DNA of 64,000 bases, from positions 1 through 64,000 of IMG/VR virus record IMGVR_UViG_3300033566_000060, one strand, 5' to 3'. Origin of the DNA: a virus. Positions 5,320 to 47,755 of the stretch are shown here, one piece after another; the stretch's first letter is position 1; each line of letters opens with the position of its first letter. The notes under the pieces are model-generated. The model was given only the letters and a program-made list of their open reading frames with translations, had not been told where the DNA came from and did no database searches. The translations under genes were made by a program, and so were the position numbers.

Positions 5320-5328
5320 GCAGTAATA

Positions 5329-5665: not shown

Positions 5666-5672
5666 GCGGTAA

Positions 5673-6570: not shown

Positions 6571-6579
6571 GGAGCAAGC

Positions 6580-7029
6580 TTACGAGCGACCGTCAAAAAC
6601 GACAATCATACTATCTTTGGTCCCGCTTTGTTCCTTTCCATCTTTGTTTAATGGAATGTAAAAGTTTCTGTTTTCGTCTAACTTTCCAAATTTAATTCTA
6701 CCTTTTAAAAATTCTATTTCAGTTGCGTTTGGTTTGATCCATTCGTGAAATAATTTTGTGCTTGTAGATACCGGAATAAGGAAAACACAAACTTTTCCTT
6801 TATTCATTTCTTCAACTCCTTTTTTTACAAATTCCTCTTTTAGTTTTTGGCTATAAGGCGGATTTACAAAATTTGAGTTTCCCCATTCGATTTTCAAACC
6901 ATCATTTACAATTTCATTTTCATTGTAAGGACAAGGATCAAAATCAAAATTAAAACGCTTATTTAATTCCTCATATAATTTTGGAGGTGTAGCATAATTG
7001 TCATCGTTGTTTATGTGTATTTTTTTCAT
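6580..7029 (-). CDS. phage Dam-type N6-adenine DNA methyltransferase (cassette B cargo)
   Basis: YATPPKLYEEL...FDFDPCP...W...NSNFVNPPYS pattern (NPPY motif IV) typical of small phage N6A methylases. Boxed by GTTAGGAGCTGGCT (7052-7065) and AGCTTGCTCCTAAC (6567-6580). It has its own ATG 23 nt after the 5' box. Confidence 0.75.
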   Translation of the reverse strand: MKKIHINNDDNYATPPKLYEELNKRFNFDFDPCPYNENEIVNDGLKIEWGNSNFVNPPYSQKLKEEFVKKGVEEMNKGKVCVFLIPVSTSTKLFHEWIKPNATEIEFLKGRIKFGKLDENRNFYIPLNKDGKEQSGTKDSMIVVFDGRS

Positions 7030-7061
7030 TTCAAATTTTTAGTTGATAAAAAGCCAGCTCC

Positions 7062-7187
7062 TAACATCGGTTTGAAAGCAATGGCAAAATATGTGGTTTA
7101 ATCACGTTTATCTTTCGCAAGAAATTCATTAGTAACGGAAAATTTATCTTTCCGAAATTTGCCACTGCTTCAAGCCGAGTACCGTTA
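7062..7187 (-). repeat. attC-like imperfect hairpin element (between cassettes A and B), 126 bp
   Basis: Minus strand reads TAAC-GGTAC-TCGG-C-TTGAAGCAGTGGCAAA ... TTTGCCATTGCTTTCAA-A-CCGA-T-GTTA. About 22-bp stem with the C:A mismatch and one bulged C. Confidence 0.8.
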
Positions 7188-7196
7188 GCGGTAATA

Positions 7197-7472
7197 CTAA
7201 TTTACATCATCATTCCATAAAGGATGGTCGCAATTATCACAAAAACCAACTCTTATTTCTCTATTATCTTTCTTTACGTTTATTTCCTTACAATCTGTAC
7301 ATTCATAAATTTTGAATCCAACAGGTAAAGCACTACCGCTAACACTGGTTTTATGCAATTGCAAGAGTTGTTTTAATTCAGTAAGCAACTGTTCATTTAA
7401 TTTTGTTATCGAACCGTGTTCTTTTGATAATTCAAGAGCTGTTATTTTATCTTGTACTGTTTTAAATTCCAT
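7197..7472 (-). CDS. zinc-ribbon protein (cassette A cargo fused to an N-terminal leader)
   Basis: C-terminal CxxC...CxxC (YECTDCKE...FCDNCDH). Boxed by GTTAGCGGTAGTGC (7330-7343) and GTATTACCGCTAAC (7184-7197). The leader ends in LQLHKTSVSGS, nearly identical in DNA to the cassette D leader. Confidence 0.7.
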   Translation of the reverse strand: MEFKTVQDKITALELSKEHGSITKLNEQLLTELKQLLQLHKTSVSGSALPVGFKIYECTDCKEINVKKDNREIRVGFCDNCDHPLWNDDVN

Positions 7473-7493
7473 AATTTTTGTAATGTTTAGTGA

Positions 7494-7694
7494 TTAATTT
7501 TTAATCATTACCATTGTTCCATTGATACCGTTAACGGTTTTTATTTTTCCTTCGTTGTACAATTCCTGGAGGATAGGTCGGATTTCAGCATAGCCCATTT
7601 TGAATTCCGAGATAAGGTTTACCATGTAGGTTCCGTTGCTGCCCCCAGAGTTTTCGTGCCTATCCTTGATGAAGTTTTCGATTTTGTCTTTCAT
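7494..7694 (-). CDS. hypothetical small protein
   Basis: 66-aa ORF whose start overlaps the upstream stop by 4 nt (7691-7694), which suggests an operon. Confidence 0.6.
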   Translation of the reverse strand: MKDKIENFIKDRHENSGGSNGTYMVNLISEFKMGYAEIRPILQELYNEGKIKTVNGINGTMVMIKN

Positions 7695-8056
7695 CGTAAA
7701 AAAGAGTTAGTATGGTTAATAGTCATTTGCAACAAGTTGATTTCACTTACAACAACGTTTTTTTGATGTAGTTGTTCGTTTATTTTTTCTTTCAAAATCT
7801 CAATGTCGTTCTCTACACTTTTGTAAATCCGGCGTTCCGACTCCATTTTTTTTAATGAATGGGTAACGGAAGATATGTTTCGATTTACAATTTCACTGAT
7901 ACTCTCGTGGGTATAGCCCAATAACTTCCAAAGCATGTAAATATACATCCTCCTTGCCACCACAACTTCTCCGTTTCTTAATTTAGAAAAAAGCACATCT
8001 TCCTCAATCCCGTAGTAGGCACATACGATTGATAAAATTGTTTTTGGATTATTCAT
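7691..8056 (-). CDS. DnaA C-terminal (domain IV)-like HTH protein
   Basis: VVVARRMYIYMLWKLLGYTHESISEIVNRNISSVTHSLKKME resembles the DnaA DNA-binding-domain signature (R..AM.L.R.L...S...I.......HSTV.H...K). Confidence 0.6.
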   Translation of the reverse strand: MNNPKTILSIVCAYYGIEEDVLFSKLRNGEVVVARRMYIYMLWKLLGYTHESISEIVNRNISSVTHSLKKMESERRIYKSVENDIEILKEKINEQLHQKNVVVSEINLLQMTINHTNSFLR

Positions 8057-8927
8057 TTTTTATGAATTTTTCAAAATCAGTTTTTATATCAGCATGCTTT
8101 TTAAAGAATTCCATCAAGATATTTTTTTTAGCCCTTACTTGTGCTTTATCTGTATTTCCTGATTGAATTTTATTTAGCTCTTCTTTAAAATTAAGACGAT
8201 CTTGTTTGTTTACTGATGTGCTTTTCTGTAATTCTTCCTCTACCTGAATTTTGGCTTGTTCTAACTTTTTTAAAAAGTACATTTGAATTTCAGGCTCCTC
8301 TTTGGTTGGTTTTTTAATAATGTTTCGCTCGTAGAGTTCATCGAAAATATATACAAATGGCTCTTCAATATCTTTTAATTCAAGGTATTCATTGAATTTA
8401 CGAATAATAGCATTATCCATTGTTGTTTTCTCGTCTATTAAATTAGCATCGAGAGTTACCGTTTCTTTTTTAGGAGAAATATGATGCTGAAATTTAGTTT
8501 CTTGTTTCCATTTTTTGTACTTTTTTAAAATATCAGCCACATACTCAGCATTAAAAAGCTGAAAATGCTCTGTTTTTTTATCGTACACGCCATGTCTTTC
8601 CAATTCAAAGGCTTTGTATATCTCCTCAATAGATAGTTCAGAATAGACACTAAAAATCATATTTGTAATATCTTGGGATATTTCATCGCTGTCTGCAACT
8701 TTTAATCCGGACAAAGCGCAAATTTTAGTCCATGCGATAGAAAGAAGGAATCCAATGTTGATTTCTGTTTTTCGATCACGAAGTTTTTTAAAATCATAAT
8801 CTTTTTTTAAAAAAGCAATTGGAGATAGATTGCAACTATCAACCACTTGTTGAAACTCCTGTAGCGCAATTTGCTGTTTATGCTCAATTATCGCTAATTT
8901 ATCCATTTTGTAATCGTTACTCTCCAT
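8049..8927 (-). CDS. hypothetical protein (replication module)
   Basis: 292-aa ORF overlapping both neighbours by a few nt. No motif recognised. Confidence 0.7.
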   Translation of the reverse strand: MESNDYKMDKLAIIEHKQQIALQEFQQVVDSCNLSPIAFLKKDYDFKKLRDRKTEINIGFLLSIAWTKICALSGLKVADSDEISQDITNMIFSVYSELSIEEIYKAFELERHGVYDKKTEHFQLFNAEYVADILKKYKKWKQETKFQHHISPKKETVTLDANLIDEKTTMDNAIIRKFNEYLELKDIEEPFVYIFDELYERNIIKKPTKEEPEIQMYFLKKLEQAKIQVEEELQKSTSVNKQDRLNFKEELNKIQSGNTDKAQVRAKKNILMEFFKKHADIKTDFEKFIKNE

Positions 8928-9744
8928 GATTCGGTATGTTTTGTCCTGGTATTTTTACGTTGGCGAAAGAATTGAATGTCTTTTCTGCATTAGCTATTGT
9001 CATACGTCCTAATTTTTGTTCATCCGGATCTTTTTCTTTTTGCGCGGAACTTTTTTCTTTTTGAAAATTTTTATCGTTTTTAGCCCACGTGTTTAATCTT
9101 CGTTCTAAATCCCATGTTTTTTCAAGTTCTTGTTTGAATTTTGTTTTTGATTTATTTGGTTCTGTCCAATAAGCGTAAAAATCATTAAGTAAATCTTTTC
9201 CATAAGTTTTAAAAAAAGGTTGGAGTGTGGAAGCAAATTTTAATTTGCGACTATCTAAATCTTCTTTACTTTCGTTTAATATAGTTTCCTCTACTTTACT
9301 TTGTGTGTTTACGGGTACTATAGTTTGTAGTTTACTTTGTTTCCTCACCCCTAAACTAATTAAAAGTTGTATTAAACCTTCTAAACTAATACATTTATTT
9401 TTTCTCTTAAAATATGCGTCTTGAATACTATCAACAAAATCTTGACACCAAATTATTTTATTTTCCTCCCAAAGGATAGAATCAAATTTACCTAAATCAA
9501 CTAAATCTTTAATTATAGCTAAAAGAATTTCTTTGCTTATTTTACATTTAGCACTCAAAAACATTACGGTGGTAGGTTTGGATAAATCCAAATAATGATA
9601 GTTAGCTTTTGCTAATTCTCTTAATATTTTTATAAATGTAGCAAATCCGTCATTACCATAGGTTTCTTCTATGTAATACATTTTATTTCCTTCCTCACAA
9701 AAAAAAGGAAAATAATCTACGTTATTTCTTTCAGGTCTTGCCAT
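8917..9744 (-). CDS. DUF4373/Lin1244-like replication initiation (replisome organiser-like) protein
   Basis: N-terminus VDYFPFFCEEGNKMYYIEETYGNDGFATFIKILRELA matches the DYFPH-type N-terminal domain common in phage replication proteins. Confidence 0.55.
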   Translation of the reverse strand: MARPERNNVDYFPFFCEEGNKMYYIEETYGNDGFATFIKILRELAKANYHYLDLSKPTTVMFLSAKCKISKEILLAIIKDLVDLGKFDSILWEENKIIWCQDFVDSIQDAYFKRKNKCISLEGLIQLLISLGVRKQSKLQTIVPVNTQSKVEETILNESKEDLDSRKLKFASTLQPFFKTYGKDLLNDFYAYWTEPNKSKTKFKQELEKTWDLERRLNTWAKNDKNFQKEKSSAQKEKDPDEQKLGRMTIANAEKTFNSFANVKIPGQNIPNHGE

Positions 9745-9745
9745 A

Positions 9746-10396
9746 TTAGAACTTTTTATACTTGTTGTTATAAATTTTTCTCATTTCTCCTAAAAGTTGA
9801 CTATAAGAAGTAATGTAATTCATATCAATAGCAAAAGATAATTTAGTTTGAATATCATTAAGTTCTTGAAGTTCTTCCTGAGTAGCTGTCTGGCGTAGAT
9901 TTTTACCTGTTTTATTGTAAACAATCCATTGAAGTGCTTTAGCTACTTCTTGAAATGAATATCCTTTTAGTTTTACAACTGATGTAGCAAGACTTTTATA
10001 GTTATCCCCCGCATCGTTTCTTTGCTGAATAAGTTGATCGTAAACAAATTTTATAACTGACAATTTGAATTTTGGATTTAACCACATTGAGAAGTCGATA
10101 AATAAATATGGGTGCATCCAAACTTCATCTTTTGTTTTTCCTTTAGCAGTATTCCTTCCTTTTTTAATAGATAAAGCCATATCCGAAAATCCGGATTGGG
10201 CTATTTCTTCATTTAAGGCATTTAAAAATTCTCCAGTAGCTTTTGAATTTAAGAAATCTAACATTTGTCTTTTAGTATTAGACTTATTAGAATTCCATTG
10301 CGAAAGCAATTCATTAGCATTAAAATAACCGTCTTTAGTTCGCTGTAGTACTTCAAAACTACCCATTCTACGAACCATTGTAACACTTGTTACCAT
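9746..10396 (-). CDS. KilA-N domain DNA-binding protein
   Basis: FEVLQRTKDGYFNANELLSQWN ... WMHPYLFIDFSMWLNPKFK matches the KilA-N pattern. Confidence 0.6.
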   Translation of the reverse strand: MVTSVTMVRRMGSFEVLQRTKDGYFNANELLSQWNSNKSNTKRQMLDFLNSKATGEFLNALNEEIAQSGFSDMALSIKKGRNTAKGKTKDEVWMHPYLFIDFSMWLNPKFKLSVIKFVYDQLIQQRNDAGDNYKSLATSVVKLKGYSFQEVAKALQWIVYNKTGKNLRQTATQEELQELNDIQTKLSFAIDMNYITSYSQLLGEMRKIYNNKYKKF

Positions 10397-10420
10397 TTTA
10401 GTTTTAGATTAAATTAAAAA

Positions 10421-10469
10421 CCCCTCAATCGTTTGGACTTTTTGTGAGAGCGTCCGCCCGATTAAGGGG
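10421..10469 (-). terminator. terminator-like long hairpin between SSB and KilA-N genes
   Basis: 11-bp stem cccctcaatcg / cgattaagggg (one mismatch) followed by a T-run on the minus strand. The 27-nt loop is unusually large. Confidence 0.4.
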
Positions 10470-10621
10470 TAAAATGTTTTTTATGTTTTGTATTGGCTCT
10501 CACCTCAATACGAAAACAATATTAAAGCAATTTTTCTTACCAACAAAACATAAATTAACATTTTTTTGTAATACGGAATTAGTCTAAATAACCGATAAAA
10601 TGAACCGTTGGTCGATTTTTG

Positions 10622-10993
10622 TTAAAACGGCATATCTTCGAATTCTTCTGTATTGCTTTGAGGAGCTTCAAAAGCATCGCTTGGCGCTACCGGTTCAAAT
10701 GTAGGTGCTTGTTGTTGTGGTTCTGCTCTTTCTATTCTCCACCCGCGTATTGAATTAAAATATTTGGTTTCTCCTTGTGGATTTACCCACTCCCTACCCG
10801 CAAGATTTATTGACACTTTTACTGCATCACCGACTTTGTACGGATCAACTAAATCGGCTTTGTCCCCTGCAAACTCAATCATAATGTGTTGCGGATATTG
10901 CTCTTGAGTGGTTACTACCATTTCAGATTTCACGAATGTTGCAGAAACCTGAATATTCGGATTAATTGCTTTTACTTTTCCTTCTACTTGCAT
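10622..10993 (-). CDS. single-stranded DNA-binding protein (DUF3127/OB-fold type)
   Basis: OB-like N-terminal domain, Q/P-rich linker, and acidic C-terminal tail EEFEDMPF analogous to the SSB DDDIPF tail. Confidence 0.65.
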   Translation of the reverse strand: MQVEGKVKAINPNIQVSATFVKSEMVVTTQEQYPQHIMIEFAGDKADLVDPYKVGDAVKVSINLAGREWVNPQGETKYFNSIRGWRIERAEPQQQAPTFEPVAPSDAFEAPQSNTEEFEDMPF

Positions 10994-10997
10994 ATTA

Positions 10998-11414
10998 TTA
11001 TTGTATTAAATCGGTTAAATCTACGGGTTGGAATCCTTCTGGTTTTAAAATTTTACCATCTGGGTTTCGGATTACCTTGCCTTCAACTACTTTTGTCATG
11101 TTGTTGGTATGTACGCGGTTGAATGCCTCTTCGAATACATCGCCAAAACCATGTTGATTTATCGTGCCGGCTAAAATGTACATTTTATCTACTAAGGCAT
11201 CTAAAATCTCGATTTTATCATCAGCATCACACGCTACAATGTATTCCGTGTTTTCCTCTTTCATTAAATCGTAACGAAGTCGGTTTTCCTCAAAAGTTAG
11301 ATTGGTTGGTTTTTCATTCACCGGTTGTCCGGAAGCAATTTGGAACTCTTTTACGGATTCTAAAATTTGTTTCAGTTTCATTATTTTATTTGGTTTAAGG
11401 TTATTTATTTTCAC
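10998..11414 (-). CDS. MazG-like nucleoside triphosphate pyrophosphohydrolase
   Basis: All-alpha NTP-PPase pattern R..L..EE..E......D..E..DAL.D..Y...G. The true start may be the internal MKLKQ at 11381. Confidence 0.55.
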   Translation of the reverse strand: MKINNLKPNKIMKLKQILESVKEFQIASGQPVNEKPTNLTFEENRLRYDLMKEENTEYIVACDADDKIEILDALVDKMYILAGTINQHGFGDVFEEAFNRVHTNNMTKVVEGKVIRNPDGKILKPEGFQPVDLTDLIQ

Positions 11415-11425
11415 AGTAAATTTAA

Positions 11426-12274
11426 TTATACTTTATTAAGTGTTAATGTGGAGTAATATTCTAATGCCATTGGAATTACATCGAGAATTTTTTGTTCAAA
11501 ATCGCGATCTCTTTTTATTTTATAGGTTTTTACCCTTTCTTCTTTTGTGTAGTTAGGGTTGTCGCTATAAATCAGGTTTCTTCGTAACTGATCGAAAATA
11601 GGTTTAGCTTCTGGAGTGTCTGGATCGGTTATTCCGTATCTATTTCTAAGTTTCCAAACTTCACTCTCATAAATATGTGGTGGACAATCTACCAAACAAT
11701 AATGCAGGTGGAATTCATCAGCGTCATAAAGATACATATAAACTCTTCCTTGTATTTCGTACAAGGTTGAAAAATCAGCATTCATAAAAGTTTCAGCGTC
11801 AAAGTTACATTTAATATCTTTTATGATTTTCTTTCCTTCTTCAATATGTACAATATCACATTCTCCGCTAATGTTCCCTATTGTAATTCTTTCGTCGTTT
11901 TTAAGGTAAAACTGCCCTTCCACATCACAAAGAAGATCAATTCCGTCCTCTTCTGAAAACAAACCTTTCATAACATAACGATTTTCAAGGTTTTTTAAGA
12001 ATCCTTTTTCGTTAAAACGCCAAATTTTCTCTACCTCTTTTTTAGCTGTTAGTGATAATTCAGGTTTAGCATCTCTTTTTTTAATAAGAGTTTGTAGTTC
12101 AGATGCTTTTGTGTCGGTCCATTTTACCTTATTACCGTTTTTATTGAGTCCAAATTCCATTTCGTAATTTAATTCATCAATTCTATCTATTTGAACTGGA
12201 GTTATTTTAGTATCTCTATTTTCAACTAATAAGTTTGCGAAACTTGATGCACGGAATAATATTTTTTCTGTCAT
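11426..12274 (-). CDS. PD-(D/E)XK exonuclease (YqaJ/lambda-Exo-like)
   Basis: D...E.K-type block (CDIVHIEEGKKIIKDIKC). Sits immediately downstream of a RecT-like gene, the usual Exo/annealase pairing. Confidence 0.55.
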   Translation of the reverse strand: MTEKILFRASSFANLLVENRDTKITPVQIDRIDELNYEMEFGLNKNGNKVKWTDTKASELQTLIKKRDAKPELSLTAKKEVEKIWRFNEKGFLKNLENRYVMKGLFSEEDGIDLLCDVEGQFYLKNDERITIGNISGECDIVHIEEGKKIIKDIKCNFDAETFMNADFSTLYEIQGRVYMYLYDADEFHLHYCLVDCPPHIYESEVWKLRNRYGITDPDTPEAKPIFDQLRRNLIYSDNPNYTKEERVKTYKIKRDRDFEQKILDVIPMALEYYSTLTLNKV

Positions 12275-12324
12275 GTGGTATCTTTTTAAAAGCCGGATTT
12301 TTTAGGTTCCGGCTTATTGGTTGG

Positions 12325-13239
12325 TTACTTGGTTGCTTTTTGAAGTTCTTTTTCTTTATCGGAGTACGCCGTGAATAGGTTGTAATCCTCTTCAGGAGCA
12401 ATGTACTTCCCAAACGGACACGATTGCAATTCTGCCAAAGTAGCTGAAATCTCGATGTGTTTGTAGCAGTACAAATCTACCAATTCCACATCTCCTTCTT
12501 TAATAGCTGCAGCACATCGTTGTAACATAGCTACATCGCCTGAAGTTTCGATGTGTTTTTTTACCCGCGCTTGTTCTTTTTCGTTAGAAACCTCTTTGTG
12601 GTTTGGTTTTTTAGCACCTTCAATAATTGTAATGTCAGTAACATCACCATCAGTAACTTCAATTCCTGAGATAGCACTTACTAACCAAGCTCTTCCTTTT
12701 CTAGTTGCTTTACCCACTAGCGCATCTACAGAGGTGTACGCATCCAATTTTACTGAAATAGGAATATCTTGTTCTTTGGTTTCGTTATTGATAGTCCATT
12801 TGATGTTCACATCAACAACGGCAGATTTGTTGTCTGGTTGTGGTTTCGGAACTCCGCAAACTAAAGTATATTGAAGTCCTTTCCATGTCGCCAATAACCT
12901 TCCAAGTCCTTCCTTGGTTGCGTATGTATTACCTGCGATAATATTAAATTCATTACCATAAGGTTGTAATCCCATAAGCACCGCTTCGATAAGGCAGTTT
13001 TTAACAACATCTACAGGATAACCACCGGATTTGTCTTTGTCTGTTTTAAATCCGAGTCTGTTTCCCTGTAATTGCATGATTGGGGCCATGTACTCAGGAG
13101 TAAGTAATGTTTTCAAAACTTCGATTGACTGTGCTGTTTGGTAGGCCCTTTCAAATCCCTGAAGGTTTACCTGGTTTAAAACCGATCCTACGGCTTCGTT
13201 AAGTTTTAAAGCAACTGCTGTGTTTTTGTTTTCTGACAT
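12325..13239 (-). CDS. RecT/Bet-like single-strand annealing protein
   Basis: Central block VVKNCLIEAVLMGLQPYGNEFNIIAGNTYATKEGLGRLL resembles RecT-family cores. Paired with the exonuclease. Confidence 0.5.
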   Translation of the reverse strand: MSENKNTAVALKLNEAVGSVLNQVNLQGFERAYQTAQSIEVLKTLLTPEYMAPIMQLQGNRLGFKTDKDKSGGYPVDVVKNCLIEAVLMGLQPYGNEFNIIAGNTYATKEGLGRLLATWKGLQYTLVCGVPKPQPDNKSAVVDVNIKWTINNETKEQDIPISVKLDAYTSVDALVGKATRKGRAWLVSAISGIEVTDGDVTDITIIEGAKKPNHKEVSNEKEQARVKKHIETSGDVAMLQRCAAAIKEGDVELVDLYCYKHIEISATLAELQSCPFGKYIAPEEDYNLFTAYSDKEKELQKATK

Positions 13240-13242
13240 AAA

Positions 13243-13470
13243 TTATCGTTTTAAATAGTTGTTGAAATTTTCTTTGGTGACTACTTTTTTGCCGTTGTAG
13301 TATTCGTACTCCAATATCTTGTCCTTGACATGACGCTGGATGGTTCTGAGTGAGCTTCCGGACAGTTTGGCCACCTCTTCTAAAGAGAGTTTTTCGCTGT
13401 TCTCAATTTGGCTTTTGATATTGGCAGCTACTTCCGGAGTCACGTACAATTCGATTTTCTGTAATGACAT
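13243..13470 (-). CDS. excisionase/MerR-like HTH protein
   Basis: LSLEEVAKLSGSSLRTIQRHVKDKIL helix-turn-helix. Start moved to ATG 13470, which directly abuts the upstream stop at 13472. Confidence 0.55.
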   Translation of the reverse strand: MSLQKIELYVTPEVAANIKSQIENSEKLSLEEVAKLSGSSLRTIQRHVKDKILEYEYYNGKKVVTKENFNNYLKR

Positions 13471-13471
13471 T

Positions 13472-14965
13472 TTATTGTTGTTTTGGTTCTGGTACTTTCC
13501 AAGTTTCATCCATATATTCAATGAAACCATCTAAATTAGCGTCTTCTTTTGCTTGATGGCGATACCATTTTAAAATATGTTTCCATGTTATTGGTTCAAA
13601 ATTAGGTTCTGTTGTAACTTCTTCGAAACCTACTTCCATAGTTTTAATTTCTTCCTCAACACTTTCCGAAGTGGAATAACCGTCTGCTTTTATTGTTTCG
13701 GAATCTATTGCATCATCATAAGGATCATCGCTAAGAAACCCGAATTTTTCATCTATTTCAAATGTTTTGACAGTATTAATAACATCAAGACATTCCTCTT
13801 CTTTTTCGATTCCGTGTATTGTTTCTGGTAATGGTTGTTTTTTTAATTCATCCAATCTTTTTAATTCGTCTTGAATGGATTTTACTTCAATATCAAAGTC
13901 GTTGTCGGTTCCGTGAGCAATAACATTTAGCAAACTGCAATACCCAGAATTACCAAGTCTTTGTTCGACTACGGAATACGAAATTCCTAATAACTTTAGT
14001 TTTTCGTTTCTGGAATCTATTTTTACTTTCTTCTGTTTTTCTTCAAACTCCGCTTTTTCTTTCAGGAAGTCTTCACGTTCCAAACGTTGTTTTTCATCGG
14101 ATTTCAGTTTTTCAATCCGGTCATTCAATAATTTTTGAATGTCGGCTCTTTTTTCACCGAACTCTTTTTGTAGTTCCTGACATTCCAATGCTTTTTCGTC
14201 GATAAACTGTTTTGAGATAGCATCGATGTTACCAAATTCAAGGCGGTTGATATCTAAAATCCAATTATTAAACCAGTTTGAAATGGATTCACGTATTTGA
14301 TTCACTCTTTTTATGTCGGCCAAACGTTCTGCTTCGATACGATTGTTTTCTGCTTCGGTAAGTGATTTTACTTTGTTGGCTAAAATCTCGTTTAAAAGCG
14401 ACACTTCTTTACTGAATAACAATTCAAATTCAGCAAATTGCGTTCTATCTACAGATTCTACGGTTTCAGCAAAATCACGTTGTACAGTTTCAATGTCATT
14501 AAACTTTATTTTTTCGAATGCCGACTTCCAATTGGTGCCAAACTCATTGATAGAATTTCTAATCCCTGTAACACGTTTTTCCTCCGCAATACGGGCCGCT
14601 TCTTTTTTAGCTTCCACGGCATCTTCCCAAACTGTTACCTTTTCCTGACGTACAGTTTCAGCATCTTTTACCGTTTGTATTTCGACATCGTAGGCTTCGG
14701 AAACCGTTCCTAAAATCTTGGTTTTGATTTTATCCACCACTTCTTTTTTCTCTTTCTCCAATCCGGTACGCAAGGTTTTCACCGCCGTTCGGCTTTTCTT
14801 CATTACATCATAGGTAACATTATCAACGATGTCAATAATAGGGTTGGCATCAATTACAGATTTAATCTCCGCTTTCTTGTTCTGCAGTTCCGGAAGTTGG
14901 TTGACATTGAAGTCTTCCAAATGAATCAGTTGCGCTTCTTGTTTTGCTGTTTTTTGTGGAGTCAT
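13472..14965 (-). CDS. coiled-coil protein, first gene of the leftward operon
   Basis: 497 aa, K/E-rich heptad-like sequence. No catalytic motif recognised. Confidence 0.75.
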   Translation of the reverse strand: MTPQKTAKQEAQLIHLEDFNVNQLPELQNKKAEIKSVIDANPIIDIVDNVTYDVMKKSRTAVKTLRTGLEKEKKEVVDKIKTKILGTVSEAYDVEIQTVKDAETVRQEKVTVWEDAVEAKKEAARIAEEKRVTGIRNSINEFGTNWKSAFEKIKFNDIETVQRDFAETVESVDRTQFAEFELLFSKEVSLLNEILANKVKSLTEAENNRIEAERLADIKRVNQIRESISNWFNNWILDINRLEFGNIDAISKQFIDEKALECQELQKEFGEKRADIQKLLNDRIEKLKSDEKQRLEREDFLKEKAEFEEKQKKVKIDSRNEKLKLLGISYSVVEQRLGNSGYCSLLNVIAHGTDNDFDIEVKSIQDELKRLDELKKQPLPETIHGIEKEEECLDVINTVKTFEIDEKFGFLSDDPYDDAIDSETIKADGYSTSESVEEEIKTMEVGFEEVTTEPNFEPITWKHILKWYRHQAKEDANLDGFIEYMDETWKVPEPKQQ

Positions 14966-15012
14966 ATTTTATGGTTTAATTAAACTTAGTGTCGCAAAGT
15001 AAGGGATAAAAA

Positions 15013-15039
15013 ACGACAAAAACAAAGAAAAACGACAAA
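15013..15039. promoter_or_regulatory. two direct ACGACAAA boxes
   Basis: Copies at 15013-15020 and 15032-15039. They mirror two inverted TTTGTCGTG boxes at 15214-15232. Confidence 0.45.
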
Positions 15040-15093
15040 TAGTTAGTTTGTAGAATTTTACATAGAATGAGTCTAAATTGCAGTATATCAGCA

Positions 15094-15115
15094 CCGGACA
15101 AATGTCGGACAAATA
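15094..15115 (+). promoter_or_regulatory. tandem 11-bp operator-like repeat (C/T)CGGACAAAT(G/A) x2
   Basis: ccggacaaatg followed by tcggacaaata. The same tandem pair recurs at 28767-28787. Confidence 0.5.
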
Positions 15116-15213
15116 GAGGTGTTGCAAAATAAAACCGTAGTGTTTATTGGTGTTTGCGACGATTTGTTACAATCGGGGGGAGATTGTAACGGTAAAATCG
15201 TGTTGAAAATATT

Positions 15214-15232
15214 TTTGTCGTGTTTTGTCGTG
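15214..15232. promoter_or_regulatory. two TTTGTCGTG boxes (inverted relative to 15013-15039)
   Basis: tttgtcgtg at 15214-15222 and 15224-15232, just upstream of the rightward -7 box. Confidence 0.45.
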
Positions 15233-15245
15233 TAAAAATAAAATG

Positions 15246-15253
15246 TATATTTG
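15246..15253 (+). promoter_or_regulatory. Bacteroidota-type -7 promoter box (TATATTTG)
   Basis: Matches the TAnnTTTG consensus. Positioned to drive the plus-strand cassette array. Confidence 0.5.
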
Positions 15254-15261
15254 CTAAAGAA

Positions 15262-15387
15262 TAACGGTTCGCAGCTATACGAAGGGCGGGATTTAAAAAC
15301 AAAAATTTAATATGATGCAGAAAACTTTATTTGAAAACGAGAACTTGATTGAACCACTAAAACCCGCCTTTTGTATAGGTGCTGTTA
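15262..15387 (+). repeat. attC-like imperfect hairpin element H0 (head of plus array), 126 bp
   Basis: TAAC (15262-15265) plus GGTTC spacer. Stem 15271-15290 pairs with 15363-15382 (two G:T pairs, one G:G mismatch 5 nt from GTTA). The 72-nt loop contains ATG 15312. Ends in GTTA 15384-15387. Confidence 0.8.
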
Positions 15388-16346
15388 GCCGCAGTACTTT
15401 GTTGTTCGGGGATTGCTTGATTGAAAGCGATAAAATAGAAAGTGGCTCAGTTGATTTAATATTGACCGATTTGCCTTATGGAAATATGAAGGGATTAAAT
15501 TATAAAGTATTTAATAACCCCAGTAAAGATAACGGTGGTTTGATTTGGGATAATACGATTGATGCAAATAAAATAATGCAAATAGCAAACCGAATACTTC
15601 GTAAAAATGGTAAAATGCTTTTATTTGCTCAACAACCGTTCACGACTGAATTAATAAATGCACAAATACCAAACTTACCGCATTCTTATAATTTAATTTG
15701 GGAGAAAACAGACTTTGCAAACTGCTTATTAATAAATAAGTCTTGTGCTAATTTTTATGAAGATATTTTGATATTTAGTAAGAACCACCAAAAACACGAC
15801 TTTGAAGGAATGCACCCATTAAGACATTATTTTAAAAAAGTTATGGATTTTATAGGGCTTAATAAAAAAGCGATAGTTGAAAAGATAGGACAAAAGGCAG
15901 ACCATACATTTAGAACTGATAGTACTCAATACGGATTATGCACCGAAAAAACATACTTAGAATTGATTGAAGTATTTGGTATTGATAAAATAGAAGGATT
16001 TAAAACCTTTGCAGAATTAAAGCAAATTGATACTGAATATAGAACTGACTTATTAAAGCAAATGAATAACCAATACCCAAGTACTTTTAACCTTTGGGAG
16101 GGCAACAAATACAAAAGCAACATTTTGAAATACAAAAAGGATTACAACGGCTATCATCCTACTCAAAAACCTATTTTATTGCTTGAAGATTTAATAAAGA
16201 CTTTTAGTAACGAAGGTAATTTAGTAGTTGACTTAACAATGGGTAGCGGCTCAACTGGAGTTGCTTGTAAGAACACAAATAGAAACTTTATCGGAATTGA
16301 GAAAGATGAAAATTATTATAATGTCGCTGTACGGAGGTGTTCTTAG
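15312..16346 (+). CDS. DNA methyltransferase, N4/N6 beta-class (cassette 1 cargo)
   Basis: DLILTDLPYGN (motif IV, DPPY-like) precedes the C-terminal VVDLTMGSGSTGVAC (motif I). Boxed by GTTAGCCGCAGTAC (15384-15397) and GTATTGCGGCTAAC (16346-16359). The first 24 codons lie in the hairpin. Confidence 0.8.
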   Translation: MMQKTLFENENLIEPLKPAFCIGAVSRSTLLFGDCLIESDKIESGSVDLILTDLPYGNMKGLNYKVFNNPSKDNGGLIWDNTIDANKIMQIANRILRKNGKMLLFAQQPFTTELINAQIPNLPHSYNLIWEKTDFANCLLINKSCANFYEDILIFSKNHQKHDFEGMHPLRHYFKKVMDFIGLNKKAIVEKIGQKADHTFRTDSTQYGLCTEKTYLELIEVFGIDKIEGFKTFAELKQIDTEYRTDLLKQMNNQYPSTFNLWEGNKYKSNILKYKKDYNGYHPTQKPILLLEDLIKTFSNEGNLVVDLTMGSGSTGVACKNTNRNFIGIEKDENYYNVAVRRCS

Positions 16347-16355
16347 TATTGCGGC

Positions 16356-16481
16356 TAACGTCCTGCCACTTGGCGATGTGGCAAAAAAGTACGCCCGAAT
16401 TATCGGATTATTACAAGTGCGTAAGGCACAAAACCAATTATAAATTAAGCCTGAACTTGCCATATTGCCAAATGGCTGTTA
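16356..16481 (+). repeat. attC-like imperfect hairpin element H1, 126 bp
   Basis: TAAC plus GTCCT spacer. Stem 16365-16384 pairs with 16457-16476, with C16369 opposite A16472 and two G:T pairs. 72-nt loop. Ends in GTTA 16478-16481. Confidence 0.85.
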
Positions 16482-16512
16482 TGTGAGGTTGTGGGTTTTT
16501 AAAACAGATTTT

Positions 16513-16950
16513 ATGACAATAAACATTGATTTTGATGGAACTTGTGTTACTCACGATTTCCCAAACGTAGGAAAAAGTATTGGTGCTGAAAAAGTGCTAA
16601 AAAGATTAGTAGATAATGGACATCATTTGATATTATTTACAATGCGTTCTGATAGAAAAGAGGCAAAACCTGTAATTGACCCAACAATACAAAATGTAAC
16701 AGGTAAATTCTTAACAGAAGCGGTTGAATGGTTTAATAGAAATGATATTAAACTTTACGGAATACAGAAAAATCCAACACAATTAAATTGGACTACTTCG
16801 CCAAAAAGCTATGCTGAATTAATGATTGATGATAGTGCATTAGGTTGTCCGTTAAGATTTGATGCAGAAGTTTCAGAAAGACCATTTGCTTGTTGGGAAA
16901 CAATTGAGCAGTATCTGGAGAATATGGGTTGTTTTAAAACGCAATCGTAA
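16513..16950 (+). CDS. HAD-superfamily phosphatase-like protein (cassette 2 cargo)
   Basis: N-terminal DFDGT (DxDxT) motif. Boxed by GTTATGTGAGGTTG (16478-16491) and CAATCTCACATAAC (16951-16964). Start taken at ATG 16513, downstream of the box. Confidence 0.6.
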   Translation: MTINIDFDGTCVTHDFPNVGKSIGAEKVLKRLVDNGHHLILFTMRSDRKEAKPVIDPTIQNVTGKFLTEAVEWFNRNDIKLYGIQKNPTQLNWTTSPKSYAELMIDDSALGCPLRFDAEVSERPFACWETIEQYLENMGCFKTQS

Positions 16951-16960
16951 CAATCTCACA

Positions 16961-17076
16961 TAACGTTACCTCGCTTGGCTTAGTGCCGAGTTATGAAAAC
17001 AATAATTTATAATTTAAAATAAACGTGATGAAAAACGATATAAACGAAAATAAGGCATTGAGCCAAACGAGTGTTA
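16961..17076 (+). repeat. attC-like imperfect hairpin element H2, 116 bp
   Basis: TAAC plus GTTAC spacer. Stem 16970-16987 pairs with 17054-17071, with C16974 opposite A17067. The loop holds the GTG/ATG at 17025/17028. The arms resemble those of the minus-array element at 5538-5665. Confidence 0.85.
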
Positions 17077-17360
17077 GGCGTTGTTTTGCTAATTCATTGC
17101 CTTTTTACGAATACCCAATTCCAGAAGAAAACAGAATTAAAAAATTATTTTCTGAATTTGAAATTAGAGAAATTGGTATTAAAAAAGTTACCGATAGAAT
17201 TCGTAAAGAAATGGGTGCGAAATTTAATTGCAATAGAGTTGAAGTTGATTGGATTACTTCTGAATTAAAAAAACCAACCAAAGATACTTTAAAGGCAATT
17301 GAATGGTTTGACGATTATAGATTTCCTAATAAAGTTAGACGTCTTGAAAATAACGCCTAA
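17028..17360 (+). CDS. hypothetical protein (cassette 3 cargo)
   Basis: Boxed by GTTAGGCGTTGTTT (17073-17086) and AAATAACGCCTAAC (17348-17361). The stop codon is inside the 3' box and the start is inside the H2 loop. Leader NKALSQTSV parallels NKALNKTDV of ORF 5329..5586. Confidence 0.7.
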   Translation: MKNDINENKALSQTSVRRCFANSLPFYEYPIPEENRIKKLFSEFEIREIGIKKVTDRIRKEMGAKFNCNRVEVDWITSELKKPTKDTLKAIEWFDDYRFPNKVRRLENNA

Positions 17361-17486
17361 CGTTCGAGTGCTTGCAGAAGTTAGGGAAAAGTAAGTACTA
17401 ATTTTCGATTAAAAAACTAATAATAACAAACACAAACCAAGCCATCAAGTAAAGCCTAAAACCCTAATTTTTGCAAACACTTGTTA
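17358..17486 (+). repeat. attC-like imperfect hairpin element H3, 129 bp
   Basis: Stem 17366-17386 pairs with 17462-17482 (21 bp, several G:T pairs, C17371 opposite A17477). 75-nt loop. Ends in GTTA 17483-17486. Confidence 0.85.
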
Positions 17487-17508
17487 TGTGCTGTTAATTT
17501 ATCTACAA

Positions 17509-17739
17509 ATGAAAATAGTAAAAATTGAATTAAAAGACAGTATTTTTTATGTTACCAAAAAGCCTAATCTTTTAGAAAAAATATTTGGCAAAAAAGAAAA
17601 AGTTGAAAGATATAGAACAAACAACGATGTATTTCACTATTTCAATCACGTAACTGTTTTTTACAAAGAAGATGGTTCTATTGTTTCTATTAGCAATAAA
17701 ATGTGTGATGTTCTTAATAACTACTTACGTTCTTTTTAA
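17509..17739 (+). CDS. hypothetical protein (cassette 4 cargo)
   Basis: Boxed by GTTATGTGCTGTTA (17483-17496) and TAATAGCACATAAC (17737-17750). ATG 17509 chosen because the track GTG at 17488 lies inside the box. Confidence 0.65.
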   Translation: MKIVKIELKDSIFYVTKKPNLLEKIFGKKEKVERYRTNNDVFHYFNHVTVFYKEDGSIVSISNKMCDVLNNYLRSF

Positions 17740-17746
17740 TAGCACA

Positions 17747-17874
17747 TAACGTTCCGCAACTACACGTCTGTTGCGTAAAAGAACAAAACCATCTTTCAGT
17801 TTAACACGGATTTGAAAGGTACAAAACCAAATATAAATTAATCACAATGTAGCAATAGCGTGTAATTGCTGTTA
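17747..17874 (+). repeat. attC-like imperfect hairpin element H4, 128 bp
   Basis: Stem 17756-17766 pairs with 17859-17869, with C17760 opposite A17865. The loop shares ACAAAACCAAWTATAAATTAA with H1. Confidence 0.8.
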
Positions 17875-17889
17875 TAAGCAGAACGAGTT

Positions 17890-18291
17890 ATGAAAAATAA
17901 AATTTTTGTTTTAGAAGATTTAGATTTTTATTTACCTGATAGTTTTAAAGGAATGGGTAAGCAGTACTTATTAGATTGTATTTTTAACGATAAAATACAA
18001 CGTAAATGGTCGCCAAAAATAGGGGATGTTATGATTGGATGTACTGGAAATATATTTGTTGTTTCATCAGAACACAAACTCAAAGAAGTTTTAGGCGGAA
18101 ACTTATTCTTTTTTGGTGGAGGATTATGCAATAGAGATGGTGGATGTACTCTTAATGACACATATTCATTAACTATGAATAAAAGTGGAAAATGGATTCA
18201 ATACACTAAAGGAGGTTATGAAGAAACAAGCAATCCTTATCACAGTTCGTTTTCTGATTTCAGATATATTCCTTATCCACACGAATTGTAG
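17890..18291 (+). CDS. hypothetical protein (cassette 5 cargo)
   Basis: Boxed by GTTATAAGCAGAAC (17871-17884) and GTTTTGCTTATAAC (18291-18304). It has its own ATG 6 nt after the 5' box. Confidence 0.7.
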   Translation: MKNKIFVLEDLDFYLPDSFKGMGKQYLLDCIFNDKIQRKWSPKIGDVMIGCTGNIFVVSSEHKLKEVLGGNLFFFGGGLCNRDGGCTLNDTYSLTMNKSGKWIQYTKGGYEETSNPYHSSFSDFRYIPYPHEL

Positions 18292-18300
18292 TTTTGCTTA

Positions 18301-18356
18301 TAACGGCTATATGTACAAAACCTTCTAAACCATTAATAAAATAAACACTATACGCC
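18301..18356 (+). repeat. degenerate terminal hairpin abutting the recombinase start codon
   Basis: TAAC-GGCTATATG ... CACTATACGCC-ATG. Weak stem with bulges. The loop keeps the ACAAAACC motif of H1/H4. No GTTA box follows; the recombinase ATG takes its place. Confidence 0.5.
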
Positions 18357-19157
18357 ATGAAAAACTCAAACTTTGTACAAAAATATGAGAGAGATTTAAA
18401 AGTTAAAAACTACTCTCAGAATACTATTAAAAATTATGTTGCACAGATCAATATGTTTTTGGGCTATTTCAAAGAAAAGGATAGCCCGAAACATATCTCT
18501 TCAGACGACATAAAAAACTATCTTTTAACCGCCAAGGAAGTAAATAGTCAACGGCACATGCATTCGGCAATAAAACTGTTCTACAAGTTAACGGTACATC
18601 AGCCTAAAAAGTTTCAATTTATAGAGTATTCCAGGCGCGAAAAACGTTTGCCAAAAATAATCGATAAGGATTACATTATTCAACAGATTGGTAAAATTGA
18701 AAACGTAAAGCATAAAGCGATTATAACGCTTACTTTTTCCACCGGAATGCGTGTTTCAGAAGTATGCAATTTAAAAATAGAAAACATCGACAGCAAAAGA
18801 ATGTTGATTCTCATTAAAAACGCAAAAGGGAATAAGGACCGATATGTTCCTTTATCGCAAACAACACTGGAAACATTACGCATTTACTTCTTAGAATATC
18901 ACCCAAAAGAATATTTATTCAATGGCCAATTTGATTTACAGTATTCACACCGGAGCTGTAACCAGATTGTAAAGAAGTATCTCGGCAACGAATATCATTT
19001 TCACCAATTGAGGCATTCGAACGCTACCGCACTTCTGGAAGCCGGAACCGATTTGAGATATATACAGAAACATCTTGGACATTCGAACGTAAAGACAACA
19101 GAAATATATTGCCATGTATCAACCGCTATGCTTTCAAAATTAAATTTACCAATCTAA
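18357..19157 (+). CDS. small Xer/IntI-like tyrosine recombinase
   Basis: SAM-like N-terminal domain (YSQNTIKNYVAQINMFLGYF). Catalytic set: TGMRVSEV (R), GKGNKDRYVPL (K), HQLRHS (HxxR), GHSNVKTTEIYCHV (H...Y). At 266 aa it is shorter than canonical IntI. Confidence 0.85.
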   Translation: MKNSNFVQKYERDLKVKNYSQNTIKNYVAQINMFLGYFKEKDSPKHISSDDIKNYLLTAKEVNSQRHMHSAIKLFYKLTVHQPKKFQFIEYSRREKRLPKIIDKDYIIQQIGKIENVKHKAIITLTFSTGMRVSEVCNLKIENIDSKRMLILIKNAKGNKDRYVPLSQTTLETLRIYFLEYHPKEYLFNGQFDLQYSHRSCNQIVKKYLGNEYHFHQLRHSNATALLEAGTDLRYIQKHLGHSNVKTTEIYCHVSTAMLSKLNLPI

Positions 19158-19182
19158 TCAGTAAAATTCAATTTAAGAACCT

Positions 19183-20430
19183 ATGAATATCCGATATTAC
19201 ATAAGAGGCACCAAAGAGCTAAAAAACATTTATGTGCGTTTGGTTTCCAAAGGGATTGATGTTTCGGCTCCGGTGGGTATTTTCGTGCAAGAGTTTCAAT
19301 GGGATTCCAAAAAAGAGCTTTGCGATTCCAACCAAACCAACGCCAAATTGTACCAACTCAAAGCGGTATTGTTGGGCCGATACAACCAATCGTATGCCTC
19401 CGGAGAGGCCATCGATAAAAATTGGCTTTTGGAAACAATCAAATCGGTGTTCCAAAGACCGGCGCAAGAGGTGAAATTGGTATCGAAAGCACATACTATC
19501 TACCTGAGTGATTTTTGCAGTTTTTGGTTGCAGCAACACGCAAAGTCATGGAAAGTCTCGGCTTTGGAAACCATGGGAGAAACACTAAAAAAGCAATACG
19601 AGAATTTCGTGCTAATTTTGGAGGCTTACGAAAAATCGTTGGATAGCAAGATAAAACTAAAAGAAGCGGATTCCGACTTTATTTATGGGTTTGTGGGGTA
19701 TCTATCCAAAGAACAAAAGTTCTCACGGGAAACGGTAAAAAGAAGTGTAATCCGATTGAAATTCTTTTTAAAGCGCGCGGAAGAATTGCGTTTCGAGGTG
19801 AATAAGGATTATTTGAAACCGGTGTACCTTGAAAAACAACCCGAAATCCAGGACGTGTACCATAGCGAATCCGACATCCAAAAACTGTTCGCGTTGGATT
19901 TATCAGACGACTACAAAATGGAAGCCGCCAACGATAATATGATTATGACATGTTGGTTGGGATTACGTGTATCGGATTTTATGACGCGTTTCAATTTAGA
20001 CAGCATCAAAGACGGATATGTTTCCATCAAGACGCAAAAAACCGGATCATTCGTAGTTATTCCTTTGCACCCGATGGTAAAAGCGATATTAGCAAAACGT
20101 TTTGGACAACTCCCGCCTAAACTCTCGAATACGGAGTACAATTTACTGATAAAAAAGGTAGCGGAGAAAGCAGGACTTAACGAATTGGTGTACGGAAAGA
20201 AATACAACCCGGAAACGAACCGAAAGGAAATCGGATATTACAAAAAGTACGAATTGGTAACGAGTCACACTGGCCGAAAAAGTTTCGCAACAAACCTAAA
20301 AGGCAAGGTTCCGGACGATGTTATTATCAATTGTGCTGGCTGGACCTCACCTACGATGTTGGCTCATTACGACAAGAGAAACGGTAAACAATTTGCAGAA
20401 CAACTAAACGAATACTACAACGGAAAATAA
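19183..20430 (+). CDS. int: Bacteroidota phage-type tyrosine integrase
   Basis: 415 aa with an N-terminal arm-binding-like domain. Catalytic set: LGLRVSDF (R), SHTGRKS (HxxR), AGWTSPTMLAHYDK (W...Y). Confidence 0.85.
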   Translation: MNIRYYIRGTKELKNIYVRLVSKGIDVSAPVGIFVQEFQWDSKKELCDSNQTNAKLYQLKAVLLGRYNQSYASGEAIDKNWLLETIKSVFQRPAQEVKLVSKAHTIYLSDFCSFWLQQHAKSWKVSALETMGETLKKQYENFVLILEAYEKSLDSKIKLKEADSDFIYGFVGYLSKEQKFSRETVKRSVIRLKFFLKRAEELRFEVNKDYLKPVYLEKQPEIQDVYHSESDIQKLFALDLSDDYKMEAANDNMIMTCWLGLRVSDFMTRFNLDSIKDGYVSIKTQKTGSFVVIPLHPMVKAILAKRFGQLPPKLSNTEYNLLIKKVAEKAGLNELVYGKKYNPETNRKEIGYYKKYELVTSHTGRKSFATNLKGKVPDDVIINCAGWTSPTMLAHYDKRNGKQFAEQLNEYYNGK

Positions 20431-47752: not shown

Positions 47753-47755
47753 TGT

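Follow-up and report, generated by a model that had tools for sequence, protein, structure and literature searches.

A probable integron-like cassette system with an associated Xer-like recombinase in a virus genome, with counterparts in Flavobacteria-type bacteria and their viruses

The stretch of virus DNA investigated here, positions 1 to 64,000 of IMG/VR record IMGVR_UViG_3300033566_000060 (hereafter the window), contains two arrays of short gene cassettes in which each cassette carries complementary sequence boxes at its two ends. The question raised by this locus is what a pairing that differs from cassette to cassette might serve. The boxes had been described in an earlier sequence-only reading, which overlooked the hairpins between the cassettes, the adjacent tyrosine recombinase and two further conserved wobble pairs. 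In our analysis the locus is probably an integron-like cassette system with an associated Xer-like recombinase; many Flavobacteria-type bacteria and their viruses share the arrangement.

An exact scan of the 64-kb window identified ten cassettes in two arrays, given here in gene direction. Array 2, on the plus strand at 15384-18304, holds five of them (15384-16359, 16478-16964, 17073-17361, 17483-17750 and 17871-18304), and array 1, on the minus strand from 7343 down to 5316, holds the other five, A to E (7343-7184, 7065-6567, 6446-6154, 5936-5662 and 5541-5316). All ten read GTTA-N6-G-NNN at the 5′ box and NNN-T-N6′-TAAC at the 3′ box in gene orientation, as the sequence-only reading had stated. 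Nine distinct hexamers were present, GCGGTA being the sole repeat (cassettes A and D), and the single hexamer mismatch that had been noticed in cassette B was found again (GGAGCT versus GGAGCA). Position 11 was G in the 5′ box opposite T in the 3′ box in 10/10 cassettes, and positions 12 to 14 were paired everywhere except at one position in one cassette. The pairing is well beyond chance, as had been argued: the scan rule returned 12 box pairs in the window, whereas 200 shuffles averaged 0.27 and never exceeded 2.

A set of cassettes free of selection bias was assembled by delimiting sites with TAAC...GTTA plus hairpin energy alone, so that the hexamers were never consulted. The window and 24 other loci contributed 50 distinct cassettes to this set, with 45 distinct hexamers among them. 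Perfect Watson-Crick complementarity over all six positions was found in 68% of own partners, in 0.5% of non-own partners and in none of the 131 pairs facing each other across a hairpin. Position 11 was T in the 3′ box of all 50 cassettes and G in the 5′ box of 39, most of the others having a bulged T there; this position is thus a conserved irregularity of the helix with an invariant 3′-box T. The constancy of GTTA and TAAC that had been claimed holds within the window, where they are invariant, but relatives also use GTTG and CAAC.

Covariation statistics on the box pairs, relatives included, gave the result that the sequence-only reading had anticipated. Altogether 92% of cells were paired against 64.7% in shuffled sets (0/500 shuffles as high), 197 cells were altered on both sides against 64 in shuffles, and the covariation score was 0.654 against 0.152. 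Sliding the box partner by 1-3 columns as a control reduced pairing to 28-41%. The possibility that the complementarity arose by recent duplication of a single palindrome, raised in the same reading, is ruled out, since the homologous loci covary and the hexamers are private states that were independently compensated across relatives. The description of the hexamer as an address that pairs the two ends of a cassette was thus right in substance.

The sequence between the cassettes proved to be equally structured. Every spacer (57-218 nucleotides, nt) folds into a single imperfect hairpin, standing on the TAAC of the preceding cassette and the GTTA of the following one. A hairpin finder that uses TAAC...GTTA plus arm complementarity only recovered all nine window spacers, among them the one preceding the first cassette of array 2 (15262-15387); two extra calls, at 47701-47757 and 52906-52958, were plain terminators and were discarded as false positives. 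The features of the two arrays, including open reading frames (ORFs) and putative attachment (att) sites, are as follows.

15246-15253, plus strand: TATATTTG, a match to the TAnnTTTG -7 promoter element, 8 nt before the first TAAC of array 2 (read from the sequence)
15262-15387, plus strand: first att site of array 2, TAAC-G, imperfect hairpin, T-GTTA, with the methyltransferase ATG in the loop (hairpin finder, -18.5 kcal/mol)
15384-16359, plus strand: cassette 1 of array 2, with 5′ box GTTAGCCGCAGTAC, an N6_N4 DNA methyltransferase (ORF 15312-16346) and 3′ box GTATTGCGGCTAAC
16356-16481, plus strand: att hairpin TAAC-G...T-GTTA between cassettes 1 and 2 of array 2 (hairpin finder)
16478-16964, plus strand: cassette with hexamer TGTGAG and a HAD-type phosphatase-like ORF
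16961-17076, plus strand: att hairpin (hairpin finder)
17073-17361, plus strand: cassette with hexamer GGCGTT; an ORF of unknown function begins in the preceding hairpin loop
17358-17486, plus strand: att hairpin (hairpin finder)
17483-17750, plus strand: cassette with hexamer TGTGCT and an ORF of unknown function
17747-17874, plus strand: att hairpin, 89% identical to a Lillamyvirus hairpin that precedes a different cassette body
17871-18304, plus strand: last cassette of array 2, with hexamer TAAGCA and an ORF of unknown function
18301-18356, plus strand: terminal site TAAC-GGCTATATGTACAAAA..., without a hairpin, candidate attI-like (conserved motif upstream of the recombinase ATG)
18357-19157, plus strand: Xer-like tyrosine recombinase of 266 aa, the proposed cassette recombinase (Pfam Phage_integrase and SAM_4/SAM_1)
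7184-7343, minus strand: cassette A of array 1, hexamer GCGGTA; ORF 7197-7472 begins upstream and runs across the 5′ box
7062-7187, minus strand: att hairpin (hairpin finder)
6567-7065, minus strand: cassette B, hexamers GGAGCT/GGAGCA, with a Dam-type DNA methyltransferase (6580-7029)
6443-6570, minus strand: att hairpin (hairpin finder)
6154-6446, minus strand: cassette C, hexamer GCGGCA
5933-6157, minus strand: long att hairpin whose loop encodes the N-terminus of ORF 5673-6101 (hairpin finder)
5662-5936, minus strand: cassette D, hexamer GCGGTA
5538-5665, minus strand: att hairpin (hairpin finder)
5316-5541, minus strand: cassette E, hexamer GCAGTA

One architecture was common to 81 distinct sites from the window and related loci. 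G was directly 3′ of TAAC in 81/81 and T directly 5′ of GTTA in 79/81; five nucleotides were unpaired at the 5′ side in 59 of these sites and one at the 3′ side in 53. The inner hairpin consisted, in order, of a 4-bp stem, a C.A mismatch, a stem of at least 12 bp and a variable loop. The mean folding energy was -13.9 kcal/mol, compared with -2.8 kcal/mol when the arms were shuffled. Among 26 sites sharing one register, both-side changes were present at 15 of 16 variable stem pairs with a covariation score of 0.695 against 0.167. In this register the C14.A43 mismatch and the G5.T48 wobble were invariant, and the other wobble, G23.T34, was G.T in 17/26 with the T invariant. RNAalifold gave no consensus structure when all 81 trimmed sites, whose bulge lengths vary, were aligned without gaps in MAFFT, and a permissive Rfam search over 4500-19500 matched no family, returning just chance snoRNA-like hits.

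The interiors of the hairpins carried further features. The motif TAnnTTTG, which we take to be the Bacteroidetes-type -7 promoter consensus and on which the call of TATATTTG as promoter-like is based, occurred 2 times on the sense strand of the interiors across all loci where 2.5 were expected, and the idea that each hairpin loop holds its own promoter was dropped for this lack of enrichment. On the antisense strand the same motif occurred 8 times against 2.5 expected, an excess that may be a remnant of the bacterial orientation described below, where antisense is the gene strand. Several ORFs have their start inside a hairpin loop and continue across both the 3′ arm and the 5′ box (5673-6101, 7197-7472 and 5329-5586 on the minus strand; 15312-16346 and 17025-17360 on the plus strand), and part of the att site thereby encodes a recurring peptide, ...ALQLHKT(N/S)VSGS.... 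Such a read-through ORF was present at 42 of 131 sites in all loci. By eye, an A/T-rich motif AAAC(A)TTAAATTAA recurs in many loops, often just 5′ of the ATG (e.g. window 16440-16456 and 17826-17842), and may be a translation-initiation region or a protein-binding site.

To find the boundaries of the unit that moves, relatives with and without a given cassette were compared. No close relative of the window was found, a megablast of 20500-45000 against deposited phages giving no match. Single window cassettes, on the other hand, matched Baltic Flavobacterium phages of the genus Lillamyvirus, of which six genomes contained 13-16 cassettes each with the same grammar. The description of these phages mentions neither repeats nor cassettes (PMC7077304). 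The Lillamyvirus genomes differ from each other by whole cassettes, and three independent gains or losses were identified: sniff9-2 lacked one cassette, lillamy9-1 lacked two and morran9-1 had one more. In all three, the spacer remaining in the shorter genome was identical to the downstream spacer of the longer genome, and the switch point lay within a shared ATAACG, the shared stretch being 5-6 nt. The homology between the window and sniff9-1 spanned exactly 15261-16361, from TAAC/G through the next TAAC with unrelated flanks, which is one unit; the interior of the hairpin at 15262-15387 was 93% identical to that preceding the same cassette in sniff9-1, and the sequence upstream of it was unrelated. 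When pairs of similar hairpins were compared, 7 shared the downstream body and not the upstream one, and 0 the reverse.

The mobile unit is hairpin, 5′ box, ORF and 3′ box. The hairpin travels with its downstream ORF, because the retained spacer is the downstream one and homology breaks at TAAC/G. These sequence comparisons place the crossover inside TAAC|G, at or just before the G that follows TAAC. A gene-proximal crossover at G/TTA, as expected of an integron read in gene orientation, was rejected since the retained spacer was always the downstream one. The sequence-only reading had proposed that a circularised cassette would carry N6′-TAAC/GTTA-N6 directly abutted, and this is not supported, as the cassette presence/absence comparisons put the upstream hairpin inside the unit. 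Both boxes would consequently flank the hairpin in a circle and form its basal stem. Circle junctions as predicted from this arrangement were 7.6 kcal/mol more stable than the same site in its array context.

These boundaries bear on two other explanations. Each gene is flanked by inverted repeats, as would be the case for small transposon-like elements with 14-bp terminal inverted repeats moved by a transposase or HUH enzyme. The moving unit, however, takes in a hairpin outside the 5′ repeat, target-site duplications were absent, and the repeat sequence differs in every element. Neither a transposase nor a HUH domain was detected in Pfam scans of 17 larger non-cassette ORFs and the two recombinases, the genes flanking both arrays included, and we consider such elements extremely improbable. 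The hairpins might instead be regulatory or terminator elements, shuffled by homologous or microhomology recombination in the manner of the PeSL cassettes of T4-type phages, with the box complementarity a by-product. Hairpin families do recur before different genes (10 pairs), and these phages encode the recombination functions NinG and exonuclease. Yet the breakpoints share just ~5-6 nt (ATAACG), the hairpins are diverse in sequence while their structure is kept by compensatory change, no T-run follows them, and the private complementarity of hexamers 100-1000 nt apart would have no role, all of which makes this explanation very unlikely.

A gene encoding a candidate for the recombining enzyme is located at the end of array 2. 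The recombinase ORF, 18357-19157, begins 53 nt past the last TAAC of the array. Its product has Phage_integrase and SAM-like N-terminal domains (SAM_4/SAM_1) by Pfam, and its best matches were XerA, XerC and XerD, all below equivalog cutoffs, with XerA_Arch as the top NCBIfam match and the archaeal XerA 4a8e as the top PDB match. Regions corresponding to the RHR and Y motifs were present in the alignments. The IntI-specific insertion was absent: 45 residues here span 93 of VchIntIA (2a3v), the alignment breaks at the IntI extra domain, and the TIGR02249 match was split and far below cutoff. Judged by these alignments the recombinase belongs to the Xer family and is not of the IntI type. In public sources its homologues carry only generic names. 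A second tyrosine recombinase of 415 aa (19183-20430), with weak Phage_integrase and SAM_5 matches, directly follows the Xer-like one and is probably the phage integrase proper.

The position of the Xer-like gene relative to the arrays is conserved. Among 18 IMG/VR loci encoding homologues of 37-92% identity, an array lay directly upstream on the same strand in 16 and on the other strand in none, and in most of these loci the last TAAC was ~45-55 nt from the recombinase ATG. Between the two, the motif TAAC-(T/G)(A/G)CTATATGTA... was kept in most of the 18 loci and in the Flavobacterium columnare chromosome (CP197485.1), where the same layout of array and recombinase is embedded among phage genes. 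The closest viral relative, L008 (92% protein identity), shared only window 18300-19069, corresponding to L008 9945-10713, with homology setting in precisely at the terminal TAAC and stopping within the recombinase gene. The terminal site together with the recombinase thus behaves as a mosaic module of its own, and the terminal site at 18301-18356 is a candidate attI-like site. A stretch resembling the terminal motif by eye, TAAC-TCGCATATATAC, was also seen after the last 3′ box of array 1 (5316-5290, minus strand), where no recombinase gene follows; the next large ORF beyond that end of array 1 is a NinG homologue (4283-4951).

Linkage of this kind has to be weighed against the explanation that these are ordinary integron arrays without integrase, known as CALINs (clusters of attC sites lacking an integrase), moved by a classical IntI in trans, the Xer-like neighbour being an unrelated phage integrase or dimer resolvase. 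The AAC...GTT ends, the single ORF per site and the complementarity of the cassette start to its own site are all integron features, and the Polaribacter phage P12002L has sites of the same type. P12002L is reported to contain a CALIN, of which one predicted attC recombined with attI1 under IntI1 (PMC9892861). Against this, the distance and orientation of the Xer-like gene relative to the last TAAC are constant across viral and chromosomal loci at 37-92% identity, and the anatomy of the sites is unlike that of attC, with a basal stem of 12-15 bp, a one-sided 4-nt bulge and a C.A mismatch. IntegronFinder 2.0 reported next to no integrons or IntI in Bacteroidetes (PMC9024848). We regard the explanation as unlikely, though it deserves more weight than the two considered above.

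Homologues of the recombinase at 26-51% identity were found across Bacteroidota in representative bacterial genomes, and at least 20 of these loci carried arrays with GTTR/YAAC boxes. The bacterial arrays come after the stop codon of the recombinase with their box polarity on the opposite strand, flipped relative to the phage arrays. Typically 50-140 nt separate the stop codon from the last 3′ box, beyond which stands an inverted repeat of the type AATTGGATATAGAC-AATT-GTCTATATCC. In a Maribacter chromosome (locus L036, 6141-10816) the recombinase and array are situated directly downstream of mutS and other housekeeping genes, which indicates a sedentary chromosomal version of the cassette system. 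The bacterial cargo was mixed and included superoxide dismutase, AAA ATPases, a peptidase and methyltransferases. Of 54 bacterial ORFs, 53 were antisense to the box polarity, in the canonical integron order of ORF then site, while essentially all phage ORFs were sense to it. The G/T polarity, the TAAC-G/T-GTTA polarity and the recombinase-proximal end stay coupled while transcription flips. Since the wobble polarity is unchanged when the ORF strand flips, the asymmetry follows the recombination site and not transcription.

This observation bears on how the G:T pair at position 11 should be understood. The claim that it represents a conserved strand asymmetry was upheld, but its interpretation as G:U in mRNA was not, given the ORFs on the opposite strand in 53/54 bacterial cassettes. 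A role at the RNA level, in which the flanks of each cistron form a processing or stabilising stem with G:U pairs in a polycistronic early transcript, would be compatible with wobbles on the coding strand of the phage arrays and with cassettes that appear promoterless and co-transcribed. In the bacterial arrays, the wobble polarity remains tied to hairpin, crossover and recombinase with the ORFs on the other strand, and the mRNAs would hold C.A mismatches. The cassette-precise gains and losses at TAAC/G would also be unexplained and no Rfam family was matched, so that RNA-level pairing is highly improbable as the basis of the grammar.

On the box-sense strand of a self-joined unit the basal stem is composed of a T.G pair, 10 Watson-Crick pairs, a G.T pair and ~3 more pairs. 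A third G.T is located inside the hairpin, and on the opposite strand all three wobbles become C.A mismatches. The predicted circle junctions folded at -23.0 kcal/mol on the sense strand versus -18.8 kcal/mol on the antisense strand, and the sense strand was better in 47/47 units. The simpler notion that whole hairpins fold much better on the sense strand was dropped, as the asymmetry was clear only when the cassette's own boxes were included. Tyrosine recombinases cut at the boundary between arm and central region, on the strand running 5′ to 3′ from the arm into the centre. With the crossover at TAAC/G, this chemistry would make the box-sense strand the reactive strand on a folded-hairpin model, and the box-sense strand would be the geometric counterpart of the integron bottom strand.

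The integron-like reading may be put as a series of steps. Each unit would be read as [TAAC/G - imperfect hairpin - T-GTTA-N6-G-NNN - ORF - NNN-T-N6′-TAAC], with the boxes as outer arms, equivalent to R″ and R′, forming two halves of one folded attachment site. The Xer-like recombinase (18357-19157) would exchange strands at TAAC/G on the 5′ side of the hairpin, and recombination of two successive sites would free a circle. Within the circle, the cassette's own 3′ and 5′ boxes would sit on either side of the hairpin and form the basal stem, in which a T.G wobble stands at either end of 10 Watson-Crick pairs and ~3 further pairs follow. The circle could then re-insert at another TAAC, either the terminal site by the recombinase gene or another att site. 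Hexamers could drift by compensatory change because each need match its own partner only. The three wobbles, being C.A on the other strand, would bias folding to one strand, which in the phages is the coding strand.

Several points weigh against this reading. Catalysis by this particular enzyme, a folded single-stranded substrate, a circular intermediate and the exact bond cleaved are steps that we infer. By sequence alignment the recombinase is without the domain by which IntI reads extrahelical bases, and the anatomy of its proposed site is not that of a classical attC, which has a 7-bp R box, an unpaired central spacer on both arms, an L box and extrahelical bases; here, 10 bp bracketed by two T.G wobbles are followed by a one-sided 4-nt bulge, 4 bp, a C.A mismatch and at least 12 bp. 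The terminal motif could be a phage attP core instead. There is no annotated tyrosine recombinase in Lillamyvirus and none adjoining array 1 of the window, so that both sets of arrays would have to be served by an enzyme acting in trans. The folding difference between the strands in array context was just -0.67 kcal/mol, with the sense strand better at 21/32 sites. Ten pairs of similar hairpins had both neighbouring bodies different. By analogy with the near-identical attC sites of a sedentary integron these may be read as hairpin families, and occasional exchange on the GTTA side is a possible alternative.

The wider claim, on which we are evenly divided, is that Bacteroidota and their phages have an integron-like system of their own, with an Xer-like enzyme that never acquired the IntI domain, a strand chosen by three G.T wobbles and not by extrahelical bases, a chromosomal layout of ORF then site, a flipped orientation of the phage cargo, and shuffling of methyltransferases. 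On this claim the phages would use the cassette system to shuffle anti-restriction methyltransferases and other accessory genes. The prevailing view is that integrons are all but missing from Bacteroidetes and that they need the special IntI domain to handle folded attC sites. The system would, if the claim is true, represent a second origin, independent or ancestral, of cassette capture by folded-strand recombination; the integron principle would have arisen twice, or its ancestor would be revealed. Many arrays that seem to escape the integron finders now in use would be added, and the private address stem with its strand-selecting wobbles would offer a simple and reusable engineering rule. 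The phage-type array in the F. columnare chromosome makes the model testable in a cultivable host. Nilsson et al. linked the presence of one methyltransferase to plating efficiency in the Lillamyvirus phages (PMC7077304), and cassette exchange would account for the modular variation of the early region in Flavobacteriia phages, methyltransferase differences of this kind included.

Other features of the window were noted in passing. A perfect hairpin, GTTACAATC-GGGGGGA-GATTGTAAC followed by G, is present at 15166-15190, ~70 nt upstream of the promoter-like box of array 2. It has the appearance of a 5′ box and a 3′ box paired with nothing in between, and could be an empty box pair or scar, or an unrelated stem-loop. 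The repeat AAAAACGAC occurs in ~3 copies and its inverse TTTTGTCGTG in 2, at 15009-15039 and 15213-15233; these flank the divergent intergenic region between ORF 13472-14965 (minus strand) and array 2 and probably bind a regulator. ARAGORN called a permuted tmRNA-like gene at 3858-4214 (minus strand) with the tag peptide AKVITLGQPLRMAA, which overlaps the end of a 1300-aa ORF (28-3930) and may be a false positive. The window also holds a GroEL/Cpn60-like chaperonin gene (34906-36498, minus strand) and a gene for a protein with eight DUF285 repeats (39809-41749), and is otherwise a phage-like genome.

How does the system compare with those already known? The PeSL cassettes of T4-like phages are characterised by homology in a conserved promoter and stem-loop, whereas the breakpoints here shared 5-6 nt and promoter motifs were not in excess (2 versus 2.5 expected). 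Elements of the IS200/IS605 type, with a TnpA of the HUH/Y1 class, have hairpins at both ends, but one hairpin per unit was found here, and Pfam scans of the larger ORFs neighbouring both arrays revealed no HUH domain. Xer/dif sites are 28 bp long with conserved 11-bp arms, while the sites described here share only YAACG and TGTTR and their arms are variable hexamers. The pdif modules of Acinetobacter plasmids are gene modules bounded by inverted Xer-type sites and are in this respect alike; their 28-bp dif-like sites have conserved arms common to neighbouring modules. Each of the present cassettes, in contrast, has covarying arms of its own, and its site includes a structured hairpin. In the CTX phage and IMEX elements an Xer-family enzyme acts on a hairpin of one strand by single-strand exchange. 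This Xer-on-folded-strand mechanism is the one proposed here, although CTX and IMEX rely on host XerCD and a fixed-sequence chromosomal dif and move whole phage genomes instead of cassette arrays.

Integrons in which the integrase gene is inverted, of the Treponema denticola type, resemble the bacterial loci, where recombinase and cassettes are co-oriented and the array begins where the recombinase gene ends. The Treponema systems differ in using a true IntI. A CALIN is defined by two or more attC sites recognised by the attC covariance model in the absence of a nearby IntI; array 1 and the Lillamyvirus arrays have no tyrosine recombinase nearby. The Polaribacter phage P12002L had four hairpins of the form YAACG...TGTTR, all of them on the gene strand, and a GTTG/CAAC box pair in which position 11 was again G:T; its cargo also comprises methyltransferases. 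An exact GTTA-grammar scan of P12002L returned nothing, and the relationship was seen only by the relaxed GTTR/YAAC rule and by eye. Qi et al. 2023 treated the P12002L sites as ordinary attC found by HattCI/Infernal (PMC9892861), and term searches of that paper turned up neither the box grammar nor the unit boundaries, nor any dedicated Xer-like recombinase. Literature searches retrieved no other description of this cassette system. The family has thus been glimpsed before, but was filed as ordinary attC sites.

Compared with classical integrons, two defining features are absent here, the IntI domain and the internal anatomy of attC. The recombinase is an Xer-like protein of 266 aa without the IntI insertion, and the sites are ~60-220 nt long. 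In the phage arrays, furthermore, the site precedes its ORF, folding favours the coding strand, and the recombinase gene lies at the promoter-distal end in the same orientation. Much else is alike. The cassettes form single-ORF arrays, with no sense-strand promoter motif detected in the hairpin spacers, and the imperfect palindromes are kept in structure and not in sequence, with ends AAC...GTT. The crossover is at the edge, so that the first bases of a cassette complement the far arm of its own site. Strand asymmetry of the fold is built in, where classical integrons recombine one folded single strand and resolve the product by replication. The recombinase gene is next to a conserved terminal motif that may correspond to attI, the cargo is diverse and accessory, and the bacterial relatives share even the layout of ORF then site and a predicted folded strand that is the non-coding one.

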